From Microthyrium microscopicum (taxonomy: Eukaryota), in contig MU004237.1 of the NCBI GenBank assembly GCA_010405405.1, forward strand, positions 1,685,345 through 1,749,344: a stretch of DNA of 64,000 nucleotides, written 5' to 3'. This document shows positions 5,764 through 64,000 of this stretch, piece after piece (within the stretch, counting starts at the first letter, position 1; every line of letters starts with the position of its first letter). Both the position numbers and the translations under genes were made by a program. Under the pieces are notes generated by a model that searched no databases, was not told the origin of the DNA, and saw only the letters and a list, made by a program, of their open reading frames with translations.

Positions 5764-7040
5764 TTGTAAAGCTGACTTGATTCGCACAACCTGAAAAAGG
5801 AAAAGTGTTCAGCTGCGTCCTGCAGGAGGCAGCATAAACTTCCAGATTTCTACCATCCTCCTGCGTTTTTGTTCTCGAAAAGAATAGTCATTGGTCTGTT
5901 ATGCGCTCAATTCATGCTATACGATAATCGATGCGCAGATATCGAACCCGCAATCCGACTGCATACTCCGATGCGATGCTACTCTACTCTGGTACTGATG
6001 TTGCCCATGGATCATACAATTCCCTAGCACAAACGTACCGAGCATCGTTCTTCCAAGAAACAAAGATACAAACAACGCATTCTCAATGTACTTTTGCCCT
6101 AATGAAAAGCTTTCCATCAATGGTTTTAACCTCATCTCGAGATCAGGCTCAGAGCCCTCGAAAAGCTCGAGTTTTCGACTGTAAACAAACACATGGGTAT
6201 CTACAACAACCGTTATAGCTCAATATCAACCTCATCTTTTCTTTAATTAGCATCTCTCCCCACAACAGGAATACTTGGCGACACTAGCAGTATACCTAAT
6301 CATCCTTGTATTTTCGTTCTTGAACCTTCTCCAGGGCCGAAAATGTTCAAGGGCATCCATGTTTCCAGGTTGGTCAATATCAAGACGCCTCGAGGTGACT
6401 CTGATTATTTCAGCAATGGCTTCATGATACACCAAGCTTCCGCTTCTTTCAAAGACGCCTTTGAATATCAGTCCAGATCCTTACTAACCTTATGTACACA
6501 GCTCTATAGATCATATATCGTATTGTAAGATTTGCGCGCCCTCAAGTTTTGGTGCATATACTATACACCTAATTATTAGTAAGTTGGTCATGTTGCGTAA
6601 CTCGCGTCGAGGTCATACATTCACGATCTAGCAAGAAGTCCTCTAATGCTGGCCCATCCCAAGCAATTAACCCCATTACAATAACATTATTTAAAGTGCG
6701 GCAAATAGCTGTGAAAGGGAAGTGTTCATGAACCTACGGTAAGACGTCAGATCCTAGAAATTGATGGCACCTTCGAAACGCCACCCATTTGATTTCCTGA
6801 GCGCGCGACGCGTCTCCATTGACATCGTCCTTCTCCCAGACCCTCTCCAACTTTGTCCCTCATCTAGACCCAATTGTTCGCGAAGGCCAAACTACAAAGC
6901 CTAATGCCAAATCACCCCCCTTTCATTCTAGCACATATTGTTTGACCAACCCTCTCCAATTCCCTCCTTCAAGCACAACAAGCGTCGTGCGTTCGCTAGG
7001 TATCCAGTTACTTCTCTTTCTCGGAGCCTCGCTCTTCAGC

Positions 7041-8107
7041 ATGACCATGGCTCAGAGCAGAATAAATACCACTGAAGACCAAATACAAATGTAAGCCTTG
7101 TGATGTAGTGGTCATATAGACACCTTCCACTAATCACCCGGACTAGTGCAACGACAATTAGAGATAAAAAACGAAAACGACAAGAGGCCGAAGCGTTAGC
7201 ACGGAAACGTCGCAATATTTGTTCTGCCCGTTGGGCCACCGGTGGCCGTTGTGAAGTTTCAAGCTCTTATTCGTAAGTTTCCCAGATTCTCTCCGTACTA
7301 TCACCGCGAAGGCTAATGCTTTCTTTTTCTTATAACAGATTTCGAGGCCCATCAATCCAAATCATAGTTGGCGAAGGCCACGATACATATACACCACATA
7401 CCTTCACCGTTCTCCAGGATGTTCTGACTGCAGACTCATTGTTTTTCCGGAACATGTTGCAAAGCAAATTCAAGGAAGGCTCAGAAGGCGTTGTGAGACT
7501 GCCTGACCAGGACCCTGATGTATTCGAAGTATACCTGAAATACCTCTATCAGCAAAAGATTTTCACTGCAAACGATCTATCCCCTCAAAATCACGAAGGA
7601 ACCTATGATAGGCCTACAGCGAGGGACAAGCTACAGAGGGACGCCAGGGCTGCCGCGGAAGCGGTGATCTTGGTACAGGCGATTAGCCTCGCAGACTATT
7701 TGCAAAGTGATCACTTTCATAATGCGTCGATTGATGCGTTGATCGAGAGTTGCCAAGTATATGGTTGGACGCAATTCACTACCACAGAAGCGGTTGCGCT
7801 AGTAGTAGAAGTTGGTGTACCCTCACTTCTGAAGTTGACTAGAGATATTCTTATCTTCGAAGCCGATTATATAGACCCCGAAGAGGAAGTATCGCCGGAG
7901 GTCTCAAAGTTCTACTATAACGCTCTAGCTGAAGCCGTCAAGTGGCTAAAGAGGGGTGGACAGCCTTCTAAACGTCCATGGGACGGTGACAGATGCCAGT
8001 ATCATCGTCATCCCGAGAATAAAAATGGCGATGACTCTGTTCAAGTTGAGGAAGCAGAGAACATAGATCCCTCCCCATGGACCTCAAGTCATCCACCAGA
8101 CTGGTAA
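7041..8107 (+). CDS. BTB/POZ domain protein
   Basis: Three exons (introns 7091-7146 and about 7273-7339) join in frame. BTB signature IQIIVG...FTVLQDVLTADSLFFRNMLQSKFKEGSEGVVRLPDQDPDVFEVYLKYLY, ADYLQ, C-terminal CQYHRH, basic NLS-like KKRKR. Confidence 0.88.
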
Positions 8108-8546
8108 GATAACAAGGATATACATGGAATGAGATTTTATTCTTGTCTGGACCTGACTTTCAGAAGTCGAGGAGCTCAAAAGTTGCAACTTTTTGTAGCA
8201 TTCGAAAGATTCTTAAAGCACCTTCCGTAAATAATTGATCCATACTCTTAACAACAGGTAGCTTGAATACTCGATAATGAATGAGTTGCTGGATGTTAGT
8301 AAATGCTTTTCTCCCCAAGCTCATTATTAGAAGACTTCAAGGCAACCAAGGCAATTACCGAGAAGAAGTAAGCGGCAACAAAACACCATGACTATCACCA
8401 TCCAACCCCAGGCTTATCCCCCTCTCCCATTGGTCCAGCTCCACCACCACTCCCCCATGCCATCAAATGCAATCTCCAGCGTAAGCACAACTCCGACAAT
8501 GCTTTAACTCTCTTTTCACCACCTTTCTCTGGTGATGAAGCTCTCC

Positions 8547-9715
8547 ATGCCCTCCTATTCCATTCTCCTTTCTTCTCTCTTCCTCGCCCTCCCGCTCATC
8601 ATTTACACAATGGGCCTCTTCACCCGCAAATCCCAATTCGTTGTCGATGGCCGTGTAAGTTCCCTGTTACCGTACAGCTTACAAAACTGACTTCAGCAGA
8701 CGGTCCTGATCACCGGCGCCTCACAAGGTCTCGGCCGCGCTCTCGCAAAGCTTCTCGCGCAAAAAGGCGCAAATGTCATCGTCGTAGCGCGCAGCGAAGA
8801 CAAGCTCAAAGCCGTCGTCGCTGAATGCAGAGTAGCCTTTCCTATTCCTCTCCTTGTTCTATACTGATACAACTGCGATAGGCCGCAGCAATTCACTCCT
8901 CCCAACGCTTCACCCACTTCGCCATCGACCTAACTTCCCCCGCCGCGAATACCCAGCTCCTCGCCGACGCAACACAATGGAACGACAACGTCCCTCCCCC
9001 AATCATCTGGGCCAACGCTGGCTCCGCCTACCCACATCTCCTCGCCGACACGCCCGTCGATACATTAAGATCACAAATGGACATTGATTACTGGGCAGCT
9101 GCATACCTCGCGAAAGAGAGTATTGCCGCCTGGATATCTACCAGCACCAACGACACCAAAGAAAGCAAGGGAAAAGATGGACTACCAAATCACTTGATAA
9201 TGACATCGAGCGTGATTGCTTTCGCCCCACTCGCCGGCTACGGTCCCTACGCACCCGCCAAAGCTGCCCTTCGCGCCCTCGCGGATACACTACGCTCCGA
9301 ATTACATCTCTACAATGGGGCTCGTTTACATAAGTCTTCTCCAAGCACGCATCCAGAGCTACGCAACCATGTCGTTTTCCCATCCGGGATAACAACCGAA
9401 GGTTTCGACGCTGAGAACCTCGTCAAACATCCCGTCACGAAGATTCTTGAAGAAGATGACAAGCCCCAAACACCCGAGGAAGTTGCCATAGCGGCCGTGA
9501 GAGGCTTGGAGAGGGGTGAGTATATGATCACGACGAACGCTTTAGGGTATCTGATGAAGGTCTCGTCACTGGGAGGGAGTAAGCGGAATGGTTGGGCTGT
9601 GCTGGATACAGTTGGCAGCTGGGTGGGCAGTTTGGTGTGGTTATTTGTTGGACCGGATCTGGATAGCAAGGTTTTTAAATGGGGGAAAGCGAATGGTGTC
9701 AATGGGAGTAGCTGA
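8547..9715 (+). CDS. TSC10: 3-ketodihydrosphingosine reductase (SDR family)
   Basis: Hydrophobic N-terminus then MGLFTRKSQFVVDGR, intron, TVLITGASQGLG (Rossmann), YAPAKAALRALADTLRSE (YxxxK), EDDKPQTPEEVA and a C-terminal hydrophobic segment. The start could be 8535, 8547 or 8610. Confidence 0.88.
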
Positions 9716-58989: not shown

Positions 58990-59389
58990 GAAGCGTGATT
59001 TATGGCTACCAGAGACGATTCACCAAATATGACAAGCCTAGGTAATTCTTGAGTTAGTTTGATCAGTAATATCGAATTGAGGATAGTCAACACCAGGTCG
59101 CACTTCGTTCCGGCAGCGATGTACTGGTCGGCGAGAGCCCGATTACGGTTCCAAGTGGTCATAATCGACATCAAGTCGCACTTCCTCCCGTTAATAATGC
59201 GTCGTTCTGCGGAGGCTTGAATCTAGTCCTGAGGTCAGAGGTTATATAATAGGTAGAACATAGCAGAAACTTGATTCCACTTCAACTCGCCTCATCTCAT
59301 AGTGCCAAACTGCTCAAGAAACACAACTCATCTCATACCTTCAACCTACTCACAAAGTTTATATATTGGACTTTAGCTTTTTATCAGAC

Positions 59390-60634
59390 ATGTCCTCTCA
59401 GCACTCCACTGTCACCATTCATGGAAGAACCTATAATCTTCCTACCAATCCTACTGTCATCGTATGCGTTGACGGTTTCGACCCCGAGTACCTCGAGCGC
59501 GGTATTGCTGAAGGCATCCTTCCAACCATGGAAGGTTTTGTCAAACAAGGTTTCCACCAAACAGCCCAATGTGCCATGCCGTCTCTGACGAATCCCAACA
59601 ACGTCTCCATCATCACTGGCGTTCCCACCGCAATTCATGGAATTTCTGGAAACTTTTTCCTCGACCGCGAGACTGGAAAGGAAGAGATGATCTTGGATGA
59701 CAAGTTTCTTTGGGGCTCAACAATTCTTGAGTTTATGTCGAAGCGAGGTGTCCGCGTCGCTGCAATCACTGCAAAAGACAAGCTTCGACTCATTCTCAAG
59801 CATGGACTCGAGGGTGCTATCTGCTTTTCATCTCAGTATGCTAAAGACTGTACGGTGGCTGAGAATGGCATTGACAATGTTGAAGAGTGGGTTGGACGTT
59901 CGACTCCTTCGCAGTACTCTGGCGATCTTTCTATCTTTGTGCTCGACGCTGGCATTCGGGTACTGCAGGAAAAACGGGCAGATTTGTTGTACCTCACCCT
60001 GTCGGATTTTATCCAGCATAAACACGCTCCTGGCTCAAAAGAGTCAAACGAATTCCTTTCGGCACTTGACAACCGCTTAGGAGAAATGGTCAAACTCGGA
60101 GCCACAGTGGCAGTCACAGGGGACCACGGCATGAGCGACAAAGCCAAAGCAGATGGCACTCCAATGGTCCTATTCCTTGAAGATGCCTTGGAAGCAAAGT
60201 TTGGCAAAACCAAAGGATTTGCAAGAGTCATTTGTCCCATCACCGATCCTTTCGTCAAACATCACGGCGCTCTGGGTGGTTTCGTCCGGCTTTATATCAA
60301 CGACAAGTCCGTCGACAATCAGCAAATTCTCGACTTTTGCAAATCATTGCCTCAAGTCGAAGCCGCACTGACCGGCAAAGAGGCTGCTGCAAAATACGAG
60401 ATGCCACTGGAACGCGAAGGGGACTTTGTCGTCATTTCAAAGGAGAATGCTGTGATTGGAACTCGCAAAGAGGAGCATGACCTTTCCAGTTTGAAAGGAC
60501 ATCGTCTTCGGTCACATGGTGGGTTGTCTGAGCAGGCGATACCACTGCTCAAGTCTATTCCAACCGATCGAGTGGTGGAGCCTGGGAAGGTTTGGAGAAA
60601 CTTTGACATTTTTGACCTCGCTCTTAACCCATAG
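59390..60634 (+). CDS. phnA: Phosphonoacetate hydrolase (alkaline phosphatase superfamily), 414 aa, intronless
   Basis: VCVDG, catalytic-Thr motif PSLTNPNNVSIITG, HGISGN, TAKDKLR, YLTLSDFIQHKHAP, TGDHGM, RVICPITDPFVKHHGALG, LRSHGG, RNFDIFD. Confidence 0.95.
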   Translation: MSSQHSTVTIHGRTYNLPTNPTVIVCVDGFDPEYLERGIAEGILPTMEGFVKQGFHQTAQCAMPSLTNPNNVSIITGVPTAIHGISGNFFLDRETGKEEMILDDKFLWGSTILEFMSKRGVRVAAITAKDKLRLILKHGLEGAICFSSQYAKDCTVAENGIDNVEEWVGRSTPSQYSGDLSIFVLDAGIRVLQEKRADLLYLTLSDFIQHKHAPGSKESNEFLSALDNRLGEMVKLGATVAVTGDHGMSDKAKADGTPMVLFLEDALEAKFGKTKGFARVICPITDPFVKHHGALGGFVRLYINDKSVDNQQILDFCKSLPQVEAALTGKEAAAKYEMPLEREGDFVVISKENAVIGTRKEEHDLSSLKGHRLRSHGGLSEQAIPLLKSIPTDRVVEPGKVWRNFDIFDLALNP

Positions 60635-60683: not shown

Positions 60684-62742
60684 TCATGGCATTTGTTGTA
60701 GACCAAGTGTATCTAGATTGAAATTGAAATCTCTCAGTAAGCTTTGTGAATCCAAGAACTCATAGCTGCCCATCAAAAATCCTCCTGAAGAGTTCTCCAT
60801 CCAACATTGTGAAGTATCTGGGCTTACAGATTCAGGATGCCGATGTGTTGACAGGAGATGTGTAGGTTCCTGGTCCGGAAGCTGTAAGCATCGATCTAAT
60901 AGCTTCTCGAGGCTCGTTGCGATACCGAATAGGAGATGTCGTGGATGGAAGCTGGGCTTAAGTTCCTTGAGAACAGTGACAAGTTGCCGTATCATATCCA
61001 GTACCTCTTGCTTGTTAACACGAACATTTCCCGATTCTCTTGTTGCAAGTTTGAGTAAGAATACAACTGCGAATGCAATCATGGTGTCAAAGTACAAAGT
61101 TAAGCCATTGAGACATGATTGGATTTCAATGTCAGAGATGATCGTTCGTAGTATTGCTGTGGCTGACAGGATCGCACCATTGGCGAACTCCTCCATATCT
61201 GGAGACATCTCATGGAAGACATTAGCATTCTTATTAGCTCCTCGAAATACGTGAGCACCGAGATAGAGCTTCGCAAAATGAAAATGCAAGGCAACACTTT
61301 TCCGAGGATAGTTTCCAAGCTGCTCGTTCTGAGTGAAGCGCTCATTCCAGTTTGCTCGCCAGGTGTCGAGAGCGATTCCATATCGGCGGAGTTGAGCGAC
61401 GCTCTTATCTGCTAGCGGAGCGTCAGTGTCGACACCAAAGTTTTCGAAGACACGAGTGCTTGTCGACCATAGTTCAATCTCGCTAATCAACCTTGCATCG
61501 TCTTCTGCGGCATATGGTGACTCCAGAAACACAGCAGGAGGGTTGAGCGTCTCAAACTCATGCGTCATGGGTGGCTTGCCATATGCGATGGAGAATTGAT
61601 GATCGCAGATGTAGACAAGATACCACATTCGAGTACGTTGATAGCAAGCTAGTTTATCGTGAGGCATTTTGCTTATACAGCGGTGAAGTTGTATTTCGGA
61701 GGCAATTCTAACAGCTTGGACTTGTTAGTTCACTGGGGTTCGAATTGCTGGAATTAAAGACTTACCAAGGCCAACAAGGGTCCAAGATATACTACTGAGC
61801 CAAAACGCTCCGATACACAATGCTCGGACGTCGTCAACTGTATGACTTTTAGAGAAGACTTGGATCCCACATAGTCGTGTAAATTCTTCATAGCAAGCAT
61901 CGTACTCTGGTGATCGCAGATGCAGCGCGCCAACAGTACATACTGCTGCTGTTAGTAGCGGAGAACTGGCTCGAACACTTGAGAGCGAATTGTGGTCTAT
62001 AAGGATTCGGTAGAGGAAGTGATCTAGTCTCTCAGTGTAAATCTTGAAGAATGACTCGACGTCTGCCAGAGATAAAATACCACGGGCAATGATATCGATG
62101 TTGGACCGATCGCCACAAGGTAGTAATGGTGGAGGTCGAGTAGGTGGAATAGTAGAAACCACTGAAGCTGGAATTGCTGCTGGTCCCGATTCTGTATCCA
62201 TAACCACTTCCCAGCTTGGTGAGTTGTCGGTGTCTCCAGTAGTCGATACCAAAGGCCGATTTCCACTAGCAGCTTCGTCCTCTCTAGCATTTGCGGCCTC
62301 GTCTTGTGTTTCAATGAGTAAAGTTCTCAATTCTGGCATAGAGAGCTTGTTCGCGAGCAACTTGATCGCCTCTTCCAAGTTACGAATCTTTCGTTTCGTG
62401 GTATGTCTATCTCTTTTGAGGCTATCAGTCAACGGCAATGATTAAAGAATCTTGGAGACAGACAGGATATCTTCCTCCAAAACCATCTGCAGACTTCGGT
62501 TCACAGTACATGGTAAATTACGCCTCTTACATCGTATGCATGGTGCTTTTGGGTCTTTCATGTGACATTTAATCTATAGTTGTCAATGATTAGCGAGTTT
62601 AATCCCTGTCTTCAAGACATACCTTTTGTTTTCGACAAGCTACACACGCTGTCACCTTTCTGGAGATTTCTGGTGGTTTTCCATCGCCAAAATGCTCTCT
62701 GAGAGCACTTATGGACGCTTCGGCTGAGGGAGAAGACGGCAT
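60684..62742 (-). CDS. Zn(II)2Cys6 fungal transcription factor
   Basis: ACVACRKQK|IKCHMKDPKAPCIRCKRRNLPC binuclear cluster and middle-homology region (SPLLTAAVCTVGALH, RMWYLVYICDHQFSIAYGKPP); three introns. Confidence 0.93.
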
Positions 62743-63195
62743 ATTTTCAAATCGAGTCGTGGTCACCGAGAGACCTTAGATCCATGAAGTCAAGCAAGAA
62801 CTCAGATCGAGTATGCTAATAGTCATACGGCGAGTAGTAGGGGATACTATCTTTTACTGCTGCACGTTATTTGGTGATCGCACTTCGCCCCGACAACGCT
62901 AAACCTCGGGATACATCCGACATTCAGACCTTTCGATTGTCTAACCAATAAGGAGCTGGATTTAAACACATGTTTTGTTACTCCCCTGTCTAATTGCCAG
63001 GATTTCATGAAAATAGTGATCGAAAAGTGTTCATGATGATCAGTGTTCCTAATGTTCGGCGCTGGCCTGCAATCAGTGGTTTGGAGCTCGGAATCTCTTC
63101 AAGAACAATATCTACCATGTACAACGTTTCCAATAAAGCACTGCGTTGTCCACTATCCATCGTGATCCTAGAGCAAAAGGCCGGAGAGTAAAACC

Positions 63196-63994
63196 TTAGC
63201 CAGCCAATCCAAGCGTATGCTTTACTCGAGCTGCTCTCTGGGGACCATTTCTGGAAGCATATGCGTTATAGAAGGCTTGCCGATGGTTGAAGTCCAATGC
63301 TGACCGGACTTCATAAATTTCAGTGTAGTATCTTTGGATAAGGAAAATCAAATCCTCGAAATCCTTCGCTGTGTGGCGTTGACGGTATGCCTCGAGCTTC
63401 GTTTTCATGATTCTCTCAATGTTCAACACTGGGAAGTTGACATCTTGGTAGGGAATGAGCTCGATGATTGATGGGAACTCATCTACTGAGACAAGACCAA
63501 ATGCGCCTGGGGCTGGTCAGCTCTTAAAAATTTGGCAGAGAGCTGGGGGATGATTTACCGGAGAGCAAGAGATCGACTTCTACCCACATCTCTGGCATAT
63601 TCTGATCCTCGACTTGGGTGAAGATTCTAGCAACTCCAGAGGTTGGGCCGGCGGGCCATAAAACCCTGTTTCTGGCGTTAGTAGCCTTGGGATGGTTATG
63701 TCATGGTTTTCCGTACTTGGGTTGACCTTTCAACGCAATCTTGAGATCGTTCATGTTGCAACCGCAAGCAAAATCTATATCCACGGTCCGTCGAGCGCTT
63801 CCGCGAAGATGAAGTGACCTGTTATATGTTAGTAATAAAGCTGTGATGTCTGCAGGAGAAGGAAAAGCTTACCAACCACCCATCAGCGCATGTACTATGC
63901 CAGCGCTATTCAGCAGACTCGAAACATACAGAGCAGCTTGATGAAGATGCTCATTGGAAACATTTCGCTCGCATAGTGCCTGTAGAGCAGTCAT
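63196..63994 (-). CDS. AbiEii/MenT-like (Pol-beta fold) nucleotidyltransferase, about 213 aa, 4 exons
   Basis: Exons 63994-63873, 63818-63717, 63665-63559 and 63506-63196 total 642 nt. Motifs ALMGGWSLHLRGSARRTVDIDF, VEVDLL and KLEAYRQRHTAKDFEDLIFL. The N-terminus may extend beyond the window. Confidence 0.78.
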
Positions 63995-64000
63995 TTGTTG

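Follow-up and report, generated by a model that had tools for sequence, protein, structure and literature searches.

The window analysed here is a 64,000-nucleotide (nt) stretch of Microthyrium microscopicum DNA (contig MU004237.1 of GenBank assembly GCA_010405405.1, positions 1,685,345 to 1,749,344 of the forward strand). At its right edge lies a minus-strand, intron-containing gene for a predicted nucleotidyltransferase (NTase). The initial annotation, made from the letters and their open reading frames (ORFs), had proposed a four-exon gene running from 63994 to 63196 whose 213-amino-acid (aa) product resembles the bacterial AbiEii/MenT toxins, and had suggested antiviral defence, allorecognition cell death or RNA tailing as roles it could have. 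The parts of the gene are given below in the order of transcription, with residue numbers of a 232-aa model.

63873..64000, minus strand: in-window part of exon 1; the in-window ATG (63992-63994) is codon 20 (Met20) in the 232-aa model; codes for the N-terminal helices and for motif I (G58-G59)
63819..63872, minus strand: intron 1, 54 nt, GTAAGC..CAG, phase 2, at codon W60; skipped by the contig of run X1
63717..63818, minus strand: exon 2, with the catalytic loop R69-x-T71-x-D73-x-D75 at 63773-63793
63666..63716, minus strand: intron 2, 51 nt, GTACGG..CAG, phase 2, at codon K94; skipped by the contig of run X1
63559..63665, minus strand: exon 3, with the third acidic residue D125 (63572-63574) in the strand V-E-V-D-L-L
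63507..63558, minus strand: intron 3, 52 nt, GTAAAT..CAG, phase 1, at codon G130; skipped by the contig of run X1
63196..63506, minus strand: coding part of exon 4 and stop (63196-63198); helical C-terminal domain with DUF1814 motifs III/IV, K166...R173...D178..D181, at 63352-63399
62776..63195, minus strand: 3' flank, from the NTase stop to the next gene; spanned gap-free by the spliced X1 contig

Counted from the in-window ATG, the exons occupy 63994-63873, 63818-63717, 63665-63559 and 63506-63199, followed by the stop at 63196-63198. Each of the three introns has GT..CAG ends and carries CT[AG]AC 14-16 nt upstream of the acceptor. Joining the exons by script gave 642 nt encoding 213 aa with no internal stop and, as had been noted, only exon 4 gives a long ORF (63196-63516, 106 aa). 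A search with this ORF found P0005 (100% identity), a deposited gene model of 232 aa. The joined product is 100% identical to residues 20-232 of P0005, and the junctions of the deposited model (MGGW/SLHL, GQPK/VLWP and LLSG/AFGL) are the same as those first proposed. The 213-aa product thus stands as a translation of the four exons but is short at its N-terminus. The reading frame is open from the in-window ATG to the window edge, the 6 edge bases encode QQ, matching residues 18-19 of P0005, and the true start lies probably 57 nt past the right edge, giving the 232-aa protein. The 19 residues beyond the window include Tyr15, which is kept in 36 of the 39 relatives aligned below. By eye, the N-terminus of P0005 has no signal-peptide-like stretch, and the protein is therefore probably intracellular.

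Splicing was examined in a public run, X1, which contains 71% of the words sampled from 63100-64000. One X1 contig of 5,385 nt fits 62000-64000 and differs from it only by five skipped intervals, all of them CT..AC on the plus strand, equivalent to GT..AG on the minus strand. Three of the intervals are exactly the predicted NTase introns at 63819-63872, 63666-63716 and 63507-63558 (coordinates given with the cut offsets applied). The contig also extends about 1,091 nt past the right window edge. Lacking five canonical introns of two adjacent genes while keeping the intergenic part, it looks like a transcript assembly. The NTase gene is real, and its splicing in a public run follows the prediction.

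The same contig also removes two introns (62412-62464 and 62573-62623) in the 5' part of the downstream gene, which encodes a Zn2Cys6 transcription factor. It bridges, without a gap, the intergenic stretch that separates this gene from the NTase gene (piece 62623-63505). The gap-free stretch could reflect overlapping untranslated regions or read-through, and a single transcript is not implied.

The product is almost certainly a nucleotidyltransferase of the DUF1814 family. P0005 matched the Pfam model AbiEii (PF08843) at 36.0 bits against a cut-off of 22.5 (E 9.4e-9; residues 56-217, profile positions 17-191 of 238), and exon 4 alone scored 25.6 bits, also above the cut-off, indicating a sequence match that is not due to chance. 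Against PADLOC there were weak matches to nine AbiEii models (best E 2.6e-7). Other searches were less informative: NCBIfam gave no match to P0005, phmmer with P0005 alone against the Protein Data Bank (PDB) returned only TraJ at the chance level of E 0.88, and homologue searches by word index, run over the near and the longer length classes, retrieved P0005 itself only. A single-sequence AlphaFold prediction of P0005 was unusable (mean predicted local distance difference test, pLDDT, 41.5). HMMER over 1.84 billion cluster representatives found, self included, 183 sequences at E <=1e-3, 41 at <=1e-10 and 9 at <=1e-30, the nearest relative being only 43% identical to P0005. Near-full-length sequences picked from the best 150 of the 183 gave an alignment of 39 relatives, 23-42% identical to P0005. 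Searched against PDB sequences, the profile of these 39 matched MenT1 (8an4, E 8.1e-10) and Pb27 (5uvd, E 8.2e-10), with LnuA-type chains (E 0.012) and TM1012 (E ~0.08) lower down.

All of the motifs quoted in the initial annotation are present in P0005. In the N-terminal domain these are M57-G58-G59, S61-L-x-L-x-G66, R69, T71, D73-I-D75 and V122-E-V-D125-L-L; in the C-terminal domain, K166-x2-A169-x3-R173-x3-K177-D178-x2-D181-L182. Conservation among the 39 relatives is high in both domains: G58 is kept in 37, G59 in 38, G66 and R69 in 39, T71 in 35, D73 in 37, D75 in 38 and D125 in 36, and further on K166, R173 and D178 in 38 each and D181 in 39. The bacterial enzymes supply the meaning of these positions. 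The DUF1814 motifs of TglT comprise G62, R76 (invariant), S78 (the phospho-acceptor, a Thr in some proteins), D80/D82, K189 and D208 (PMC7205606). In MenT1, T39, D41, K137 and D152 are highly conserved, D41A and K137A each abolish activity, and phosphorylation of T39 inactivates the enzyme (PMC11375011). In the alignment of the profile with PDB sequences, the P0005 equivalents of the key TglT/MenT1 residues are G58-G59, R69, T71, D73/D75, K166 and D181, and the third acidic residue is D125; K166 and D181 align with MenT1 K137 and D152. As judged from this alignment, every residue marked as important by MenT1/TglT mutagenesis is present in P0005 and conserved across the family. Conservation of the catalytic residues in 39 relatives at 23-42% identity argues for selection on catalysis.

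The fold agrees with the motifs. The model of P0005 consists of an NTase core and a helical C-terminal domain, as in MenT proteins. MenT1 (Rv0078A of Mycobacterium tuberculosis; 8AN4/8AN5/8RR5) was the top match both by profile and by fold, spanned both domains and shares the motif set, with 22% structural identity over the model range 34-214. Outside this alignment falls a family-specific N-terminal segment of about 33 residues, confidently modelled and containing the nearly invariant Tyr15, which MenT1 lacks. The window protein also differs from MenT1 in being eukaryotic and encoded with three spliceosomal introns. It likewise shares its motif set with AbiEii of Streptococcus agalactiae / Lactococcus, the founder of PF08843. 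Other bacterial members, JHP933 of Helicobacter pylori, MenT3/TglT and MenT4, are larger (about 230-290 aa) and have extra elements relative to the window protein; MenT3 and MenT4 have COG5340-type antitoxins as partners. Evidence from Pfam, from the profile-PDB comparison, from the fold and from RNA bears out the proposal of an AbiEii/DUF1814-MenT member with intact catalytic motifs. The two findings that would have spoken against it, absence of a Pol-beta NTase fold and unsupported splice junctions, were looked for; the fold was found and the junctions were supported.

An NTase fold is also found in enzymes such as ANT(2'')-Ia and LnuA, which act on small molecules. The window protein might be a small-molecule (xenobiotic or antibiotic) nucleotidyltransferase rather than an RNA-modifying one. 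The Pfam model Aminoglyc_resit (PF10706) was passed by 3 of the 17 relatives checked, but P0005 itself gave no match to it at E up to 1. The fold matches to ANT(2'')-Ia and LnuA end at model residues 189-206, before the last C-terminal helices of the window protein, whereas MenT1 leads by profile and fold and covers both domains. The DUF1814-specific C-terminal residues K166, R173, D178 and D181, moreover, are kept in 38-39 of the 39 relatives. ANT(2'')-Ia and LnuA are not known to carry DUF1814 motifs III/IV. We consider a small-molecule substrate improbable.

Pb27, the second profile match, raises a different alternative. This antigenic, NTase-like protein of Paracoccidioides brasiliensis (5uvd; PMC7913102) is known as an antigen and shares 15% structural identity with the window protein. 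The NTase family is no closer to Pb27 than to bacterial MenT1, and Pb27 therefore represents a different fungal subfamily. The window protein could be catalytically silent or merely nucleotide-binding, a pseudo-enzyme or a structural or antigen-like protein, as Pb27 may be: the crystal structure and nucleotide binding of Pb27 have been described, yet no function was assignable (PMC11646218), and the NTase family is patchy with some copies decaying. The metal- and phosphate-binding residues are, on the other hand, kept in 35-39 of the 39 relatives despite identities of 23-42% to P0005, which argues for selection on catalysis. We consider a silent protein very improbable.

From its residues, the NTase is likely to be enzymatically active. 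By analogy with the bacterial enzymes, D73, D75 and D125 would bind an NTP (nucleoside triphosphate) together with Mg2+, K166 and R69 would contact its phosphates, and a nucleoside monophosphate would be transferred from the NTP to a 3'-OH. The target would most plausibly be an RNA 3' end, for example the acceptor end of tRNA, with a preference for pyrimidines, by analogy with MenT1, MenT3, MenT4 and AbiEii. MenT1 and MenT4 modify tRNA (PMC10435456), and AbiEii is specific for pyrimidines and is shut down when its antitoxin induces auto-phosphorylation of T65 (preprint 10.64898/2026.01.19.700257). We regard RNA or a tRNA 3' end as a tentative assignment of the substrate. Such an enzyme would need curbing in a eukaryotic cell, and we propose that its activity is probably restrained by phosphorylation of T71 or by a protein partner, the two modes for which there is precedent. 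T71 is the equivalent of MenT1 T39, TglT S78 and AbiEii T65; with this residue kept in 35 of the 39 relatives, a phospho-acceptor mechanism is possible. On balance we favour the reading that the gene encodes a catalytically competent DUF1814 (AbiEii/MenT)-type enzyme of an old Ascomycota family, possibly acting on an RNA 3' end and probably held in check.

Several observations weigh against this reading. Run X1 is labelled only 'RNA?', and its contigs give no expression level. The Pfam AbiEii cut-off was passed by only 3 of the 17 relatives checked, and the family therefore sits at the edge of the Pfam model. Pb27 binds both ATP and CTP, and no function could be assigned to it (PMC11646218, citing Coitinho 2019). 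Literature searches on AbiEii and DUF1814 in fungi yielded no functional study of a fungal member, and no fungal member has a known activity, substrate or phenotype. Finally, the 3' side of the NTase gene shows no antitoxin-like gene; the neighbour is a Zn2Cys6 transcription factor and not AbiEi.

The presence of this family in fungi is not new, and the novelty implied by the initial annotation was overstated. DUF1814 is stated to occur in fungi (PMC7205606, PMC11375011), and AbiEii genes appear in several fungal genome papers. An expanded AbiEii orthogroup with 11 predicted secreted members is reported for Colletotrichum siamense JDA-12 (PMC13468701), 'AbiEii toxin' genes were detected across all 66 sequenced skin-associated fungal strains (PMC13448219), an AbiEii orthogroup is listed for Sporothrix epigloea (PMC11822852), and the vesicle proteome of P. 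brasiliensis contains one AbiEii/AbiGii-family protein (PMC12565617). The window gene adds a member to this recorded, uncharacterised eukaryotic branch. Of the bacterial toxins that arrest growth, the DUF1814 enzymes are among the better understood; they block translation by extension of tRNA 3' ends. Their fungal relatives are sometimes labelled 'toxins' or 'virulence-associated' in genome papers. Spliced, full length and with its catalytic residues intact among ordinary fungal genes, the gene offers a clean test case.

The distribution of the family and of its introns bears on its age. In the ESM-Atlas, the nearest cluster has 81 members, 100% of them from Eukaryota and most commonly from Ascomycota, and the next clusters consist of short bacterial AbiEii/DUF6036/DUF2204 proteins; the assignment of the family to Ascomycota is based on the Atlas cluster and on named matches of the partner family described below. 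The protein match to two relatives from metagenomes (33% and 45% identity) is interrupted near residues 90-94 and ~130, the sites of window introns 2 and 3, and continues across the site of intron 1. Among the 149 non-self matches listed, 72 were fragments of <=150 aa, and in 43 of these the match stops within query residues 86-97, most often at residue 94, whose codon is interrupted by intron 2. This is the pattern expected of exon-wise ORF calls on intron-bearing genes, suggesting that the position of intron 2 is common to the family. With intron positions widely shared across the Ascomycota family, the sequences indicate that the gene is an old resident of ascomycete genomes.

We also considered whether the gene is a bacterial contaminant or a recent transfer. 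This is ruled out by the three spliceosomal introns, two of them at sites shared with relatives of 33-45% identity. It is further countered by the GC content of the gene (0.472, compared to 0.477 for the window) and by ordinary fungal neighbours, among them the following.

About 420 nt downstream of the NTase gene, minus strand: Zn2Cys6 transcription factor, with Zn_clus and Fungal_trans domains
59306-60634, plus strand: type I phosphodiesterase / nucleotide pyrophosphatase family gene (Pfam PF01663, E 7.4e-28)

The PF01663 gene lies 2.5 kb from the NTase gene, past the transcription factor, and its nearness is probably coincidental. Further genes in the window encode a Kre9/KNH protein, a FoP-domain protein and a cyclophilin.

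A lead on a possible protein partner came from the loci of relatives. With a tighter alignment (A2), 176 stretches of metagenome contigs were matched, and six of them encode an NTase relative (L001-L006). These represent two organisms: L001-3 are ~100% identical to one another, L004-6 are 100% identical to one another, and the two sets of loci share no nucleotide similarity. In both species an ORF lies beside the NTase homologue, and the products of the two ORFs resemble each other (104 of 204 residues identical, 51%; E 3e-67).

L001, about 6823-7630, plus strand: neighbour ORF, upstream of and in tandem with the NTase homologue, whose ATG is at 7992
L006, 10683-9540, minus strand: neighbour ORF, convergent with the NTase homologue at 7977-8814

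The neighbour ORFs look intact at both loci, and no other look-alike ORFs were seen there by eye. Database searches with the neighbour family gave 114 matches, and all named ones are 'hypothetical' proteins of Pezizomycotina, from Leotiomycetes, Onygenales, Dothideomycetes, Xylariales and Aspergillus. None of 24 members matched Pfam at E 0.001 or better; the weak matches (E 0.034-0.11) include no AbiEi family, the ORFs likewise gave no Pfam match, and PDB sequences gave no match. No NTase-neighbour fusion occurs among the 150 NTase-family and 114 neighbour-family proteins. The N-terminal half of the neighbour family did, however, align with the NTase core (hhalign 93.6%, E 2.2e-7, 117 columns), and the two families gave weak reciprocal matches in hidden Markov model searches, suggesting that the neighbour family is a remote relative of the NTase core. 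Where NTase enzymes have DxD, it has D-W-E (D in 20 of 24 members, E in 20 of 24). At the spot of the catalytic Lys it has an invariant Gln-Ser (24 of 24), a motif reading made by eye just past the end of the hhalign alignment.

We then modelled a complex of two full-length proteins, the NTase relative P0008 (~68% identical to the L001 NTase copy) and the neighbour-family member P0159, in runs without alignments. The scores were 0.88, 0.84 and 0.88, compared to 0.00 for the best of 3 controls. The mark used in this test is reached by 51 of 78 solved complexes and by 2 of 108 mismatched pairs; for eukaryotes, it is reached by 39 of 65 solved pairs that have no similar complex in older structures and by 2 of 126 unrelated pairs, and 7 of 44 neighbouring genes drawn blind also pass. 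The runs agree in at least 88% of contacts, with a partner pLDDT of at least 90. On the NTase, the predicted interface takes in the G-x-x-R-x-T-x-D loop (residues 67-74), the third acidic residue (129), motifs III/IV (181-199) and the helices at both termini. In the crystal structure of AbiEi:AbiEii the interface falls into three patches, one on the N-terminal domain, one at the active site with its Arg/Thr loop and one on the C-terminal domain (preprint 10.64898/2026.01.19.700257), and the predicted interface of the fungal pair spans the same three. The nearest structural neighbours of the AbiEi antitoxin include NTases, 5UVD among them (PMC7319586).

These results raise the possibility that the window NTase is the enzyme half of an AbiE-like two-gene module, similar to type VII toxin-antitoxin systems, in which an NTase-fold partner silences the active site; the partner gene would lie just past the right edge or have been lost. 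The initial annotation had placed any partner gene beyond that edge, and the conserved neighbour in two relatives lends this indirect support. Consistent with this, an NTase homologue adjoins the same gene family in two of two relative species in differing orientations (tandem and convergent), the family is remotely NTase-like with an invariant Gln at the catalytic Lys spot, the predicted P0008-P0159 complex passes and covers the active site, and the 1,091-nt extension of the X1 contig runs beyond the edge. Against it, only two species are concerned, and the NTase copy looks damaged in both: L004-6 carry an in-frame TAG (L006 8166-8168) within MGGFSL*LRG, and for L001-3 no canonical GT-AG model gives an open frame, which only a GT..AA intron (8275-8320) would restore. 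No single genome is known to encode both P0008 and P0159. The two chains are each NTase-like, and NTase dimers and AbiEi:AbiEii are already solved, so that the pass may reflect likeness to solved structures; blind-drawn neighbours, too, pass in 7 of 44 cases. The 64-kb window holds no copy of the neighbour family (best tblastn E 0.15), and none of the 114 partner-family matches lies on a contig of 2,411,957 bases, the length of the P0005 contig, which is weak evidence of no annotated copy there. We think it unlikely that the window gene belongs to such a pair.

For filamentous ascomycetes more generally, the idea would be that they carry AbiE-like modules of a DUF1814 NTase and a catalytically altered NTase-fold partner, not recognised before, that clamps its active site, with the window gene as a member or a solitary survivor; this we regard as doubtful. 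Such modules would differ from the bacterial systems in several ways. The fungal neighbour has no winged-helix DNA-binding domain and no detectable sequence similarity to AbiEi, and unlike the COG5340 AbiEi/MenA3 or MenA1 antitoxins it is an unrelated gene of NTase fold. The fungal arrangement is not an operon, and phage defence does not apply as such. In contrast to the MenT1 system, no MenA1-like antitoxin is visible near the window gene, and the activity of its protein is predicted. If true, the module would give eukaryotes an equivalent of type VII toxin-antitoxin control that could serve in conflict, in addiction or in arresting translation under stress, and the partner would supply the missing regulator, making eukaryotic enzyme/anti-enzyme modules directly testable. 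If false, the NTase gene is one more uncharacterised member of a recorded family.

Further contig scans gave one more locus. L007 (NYXK01000225.1, 21 kb), filed under a metagenome-assembled genome (MAG) of Deltaproteobacteria, carries the same intron-bearing NTase and neighbour pair as L001 (45% identity, 812 nt), and one neighbour protein is annotated under the name of this MAG. L007 has the look of a fungal contig that was wrongly binned with a bacterial MAG; searching that MAG gave the same locus only. The pattern scan of genome contigs likewise returned L007 only and turned up no prokaryotic relative, which is not evidence of absence, and viral contigs held no match for the NTase or the neighbour family.

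Among the NTase relatives themselves, P0088 and P0091 have, by eye, hydrophobic, signal-peptide-like N-termini, which fits the predicted secreted AbiEii proteins of C. siamense (PMC13468701). In P0013 (586 aa), a retrotransposon gag match and a weak jacalin match are joined to a C-terminal NTase domain, and this protein is possibly a chimeric gene model or an insertion.

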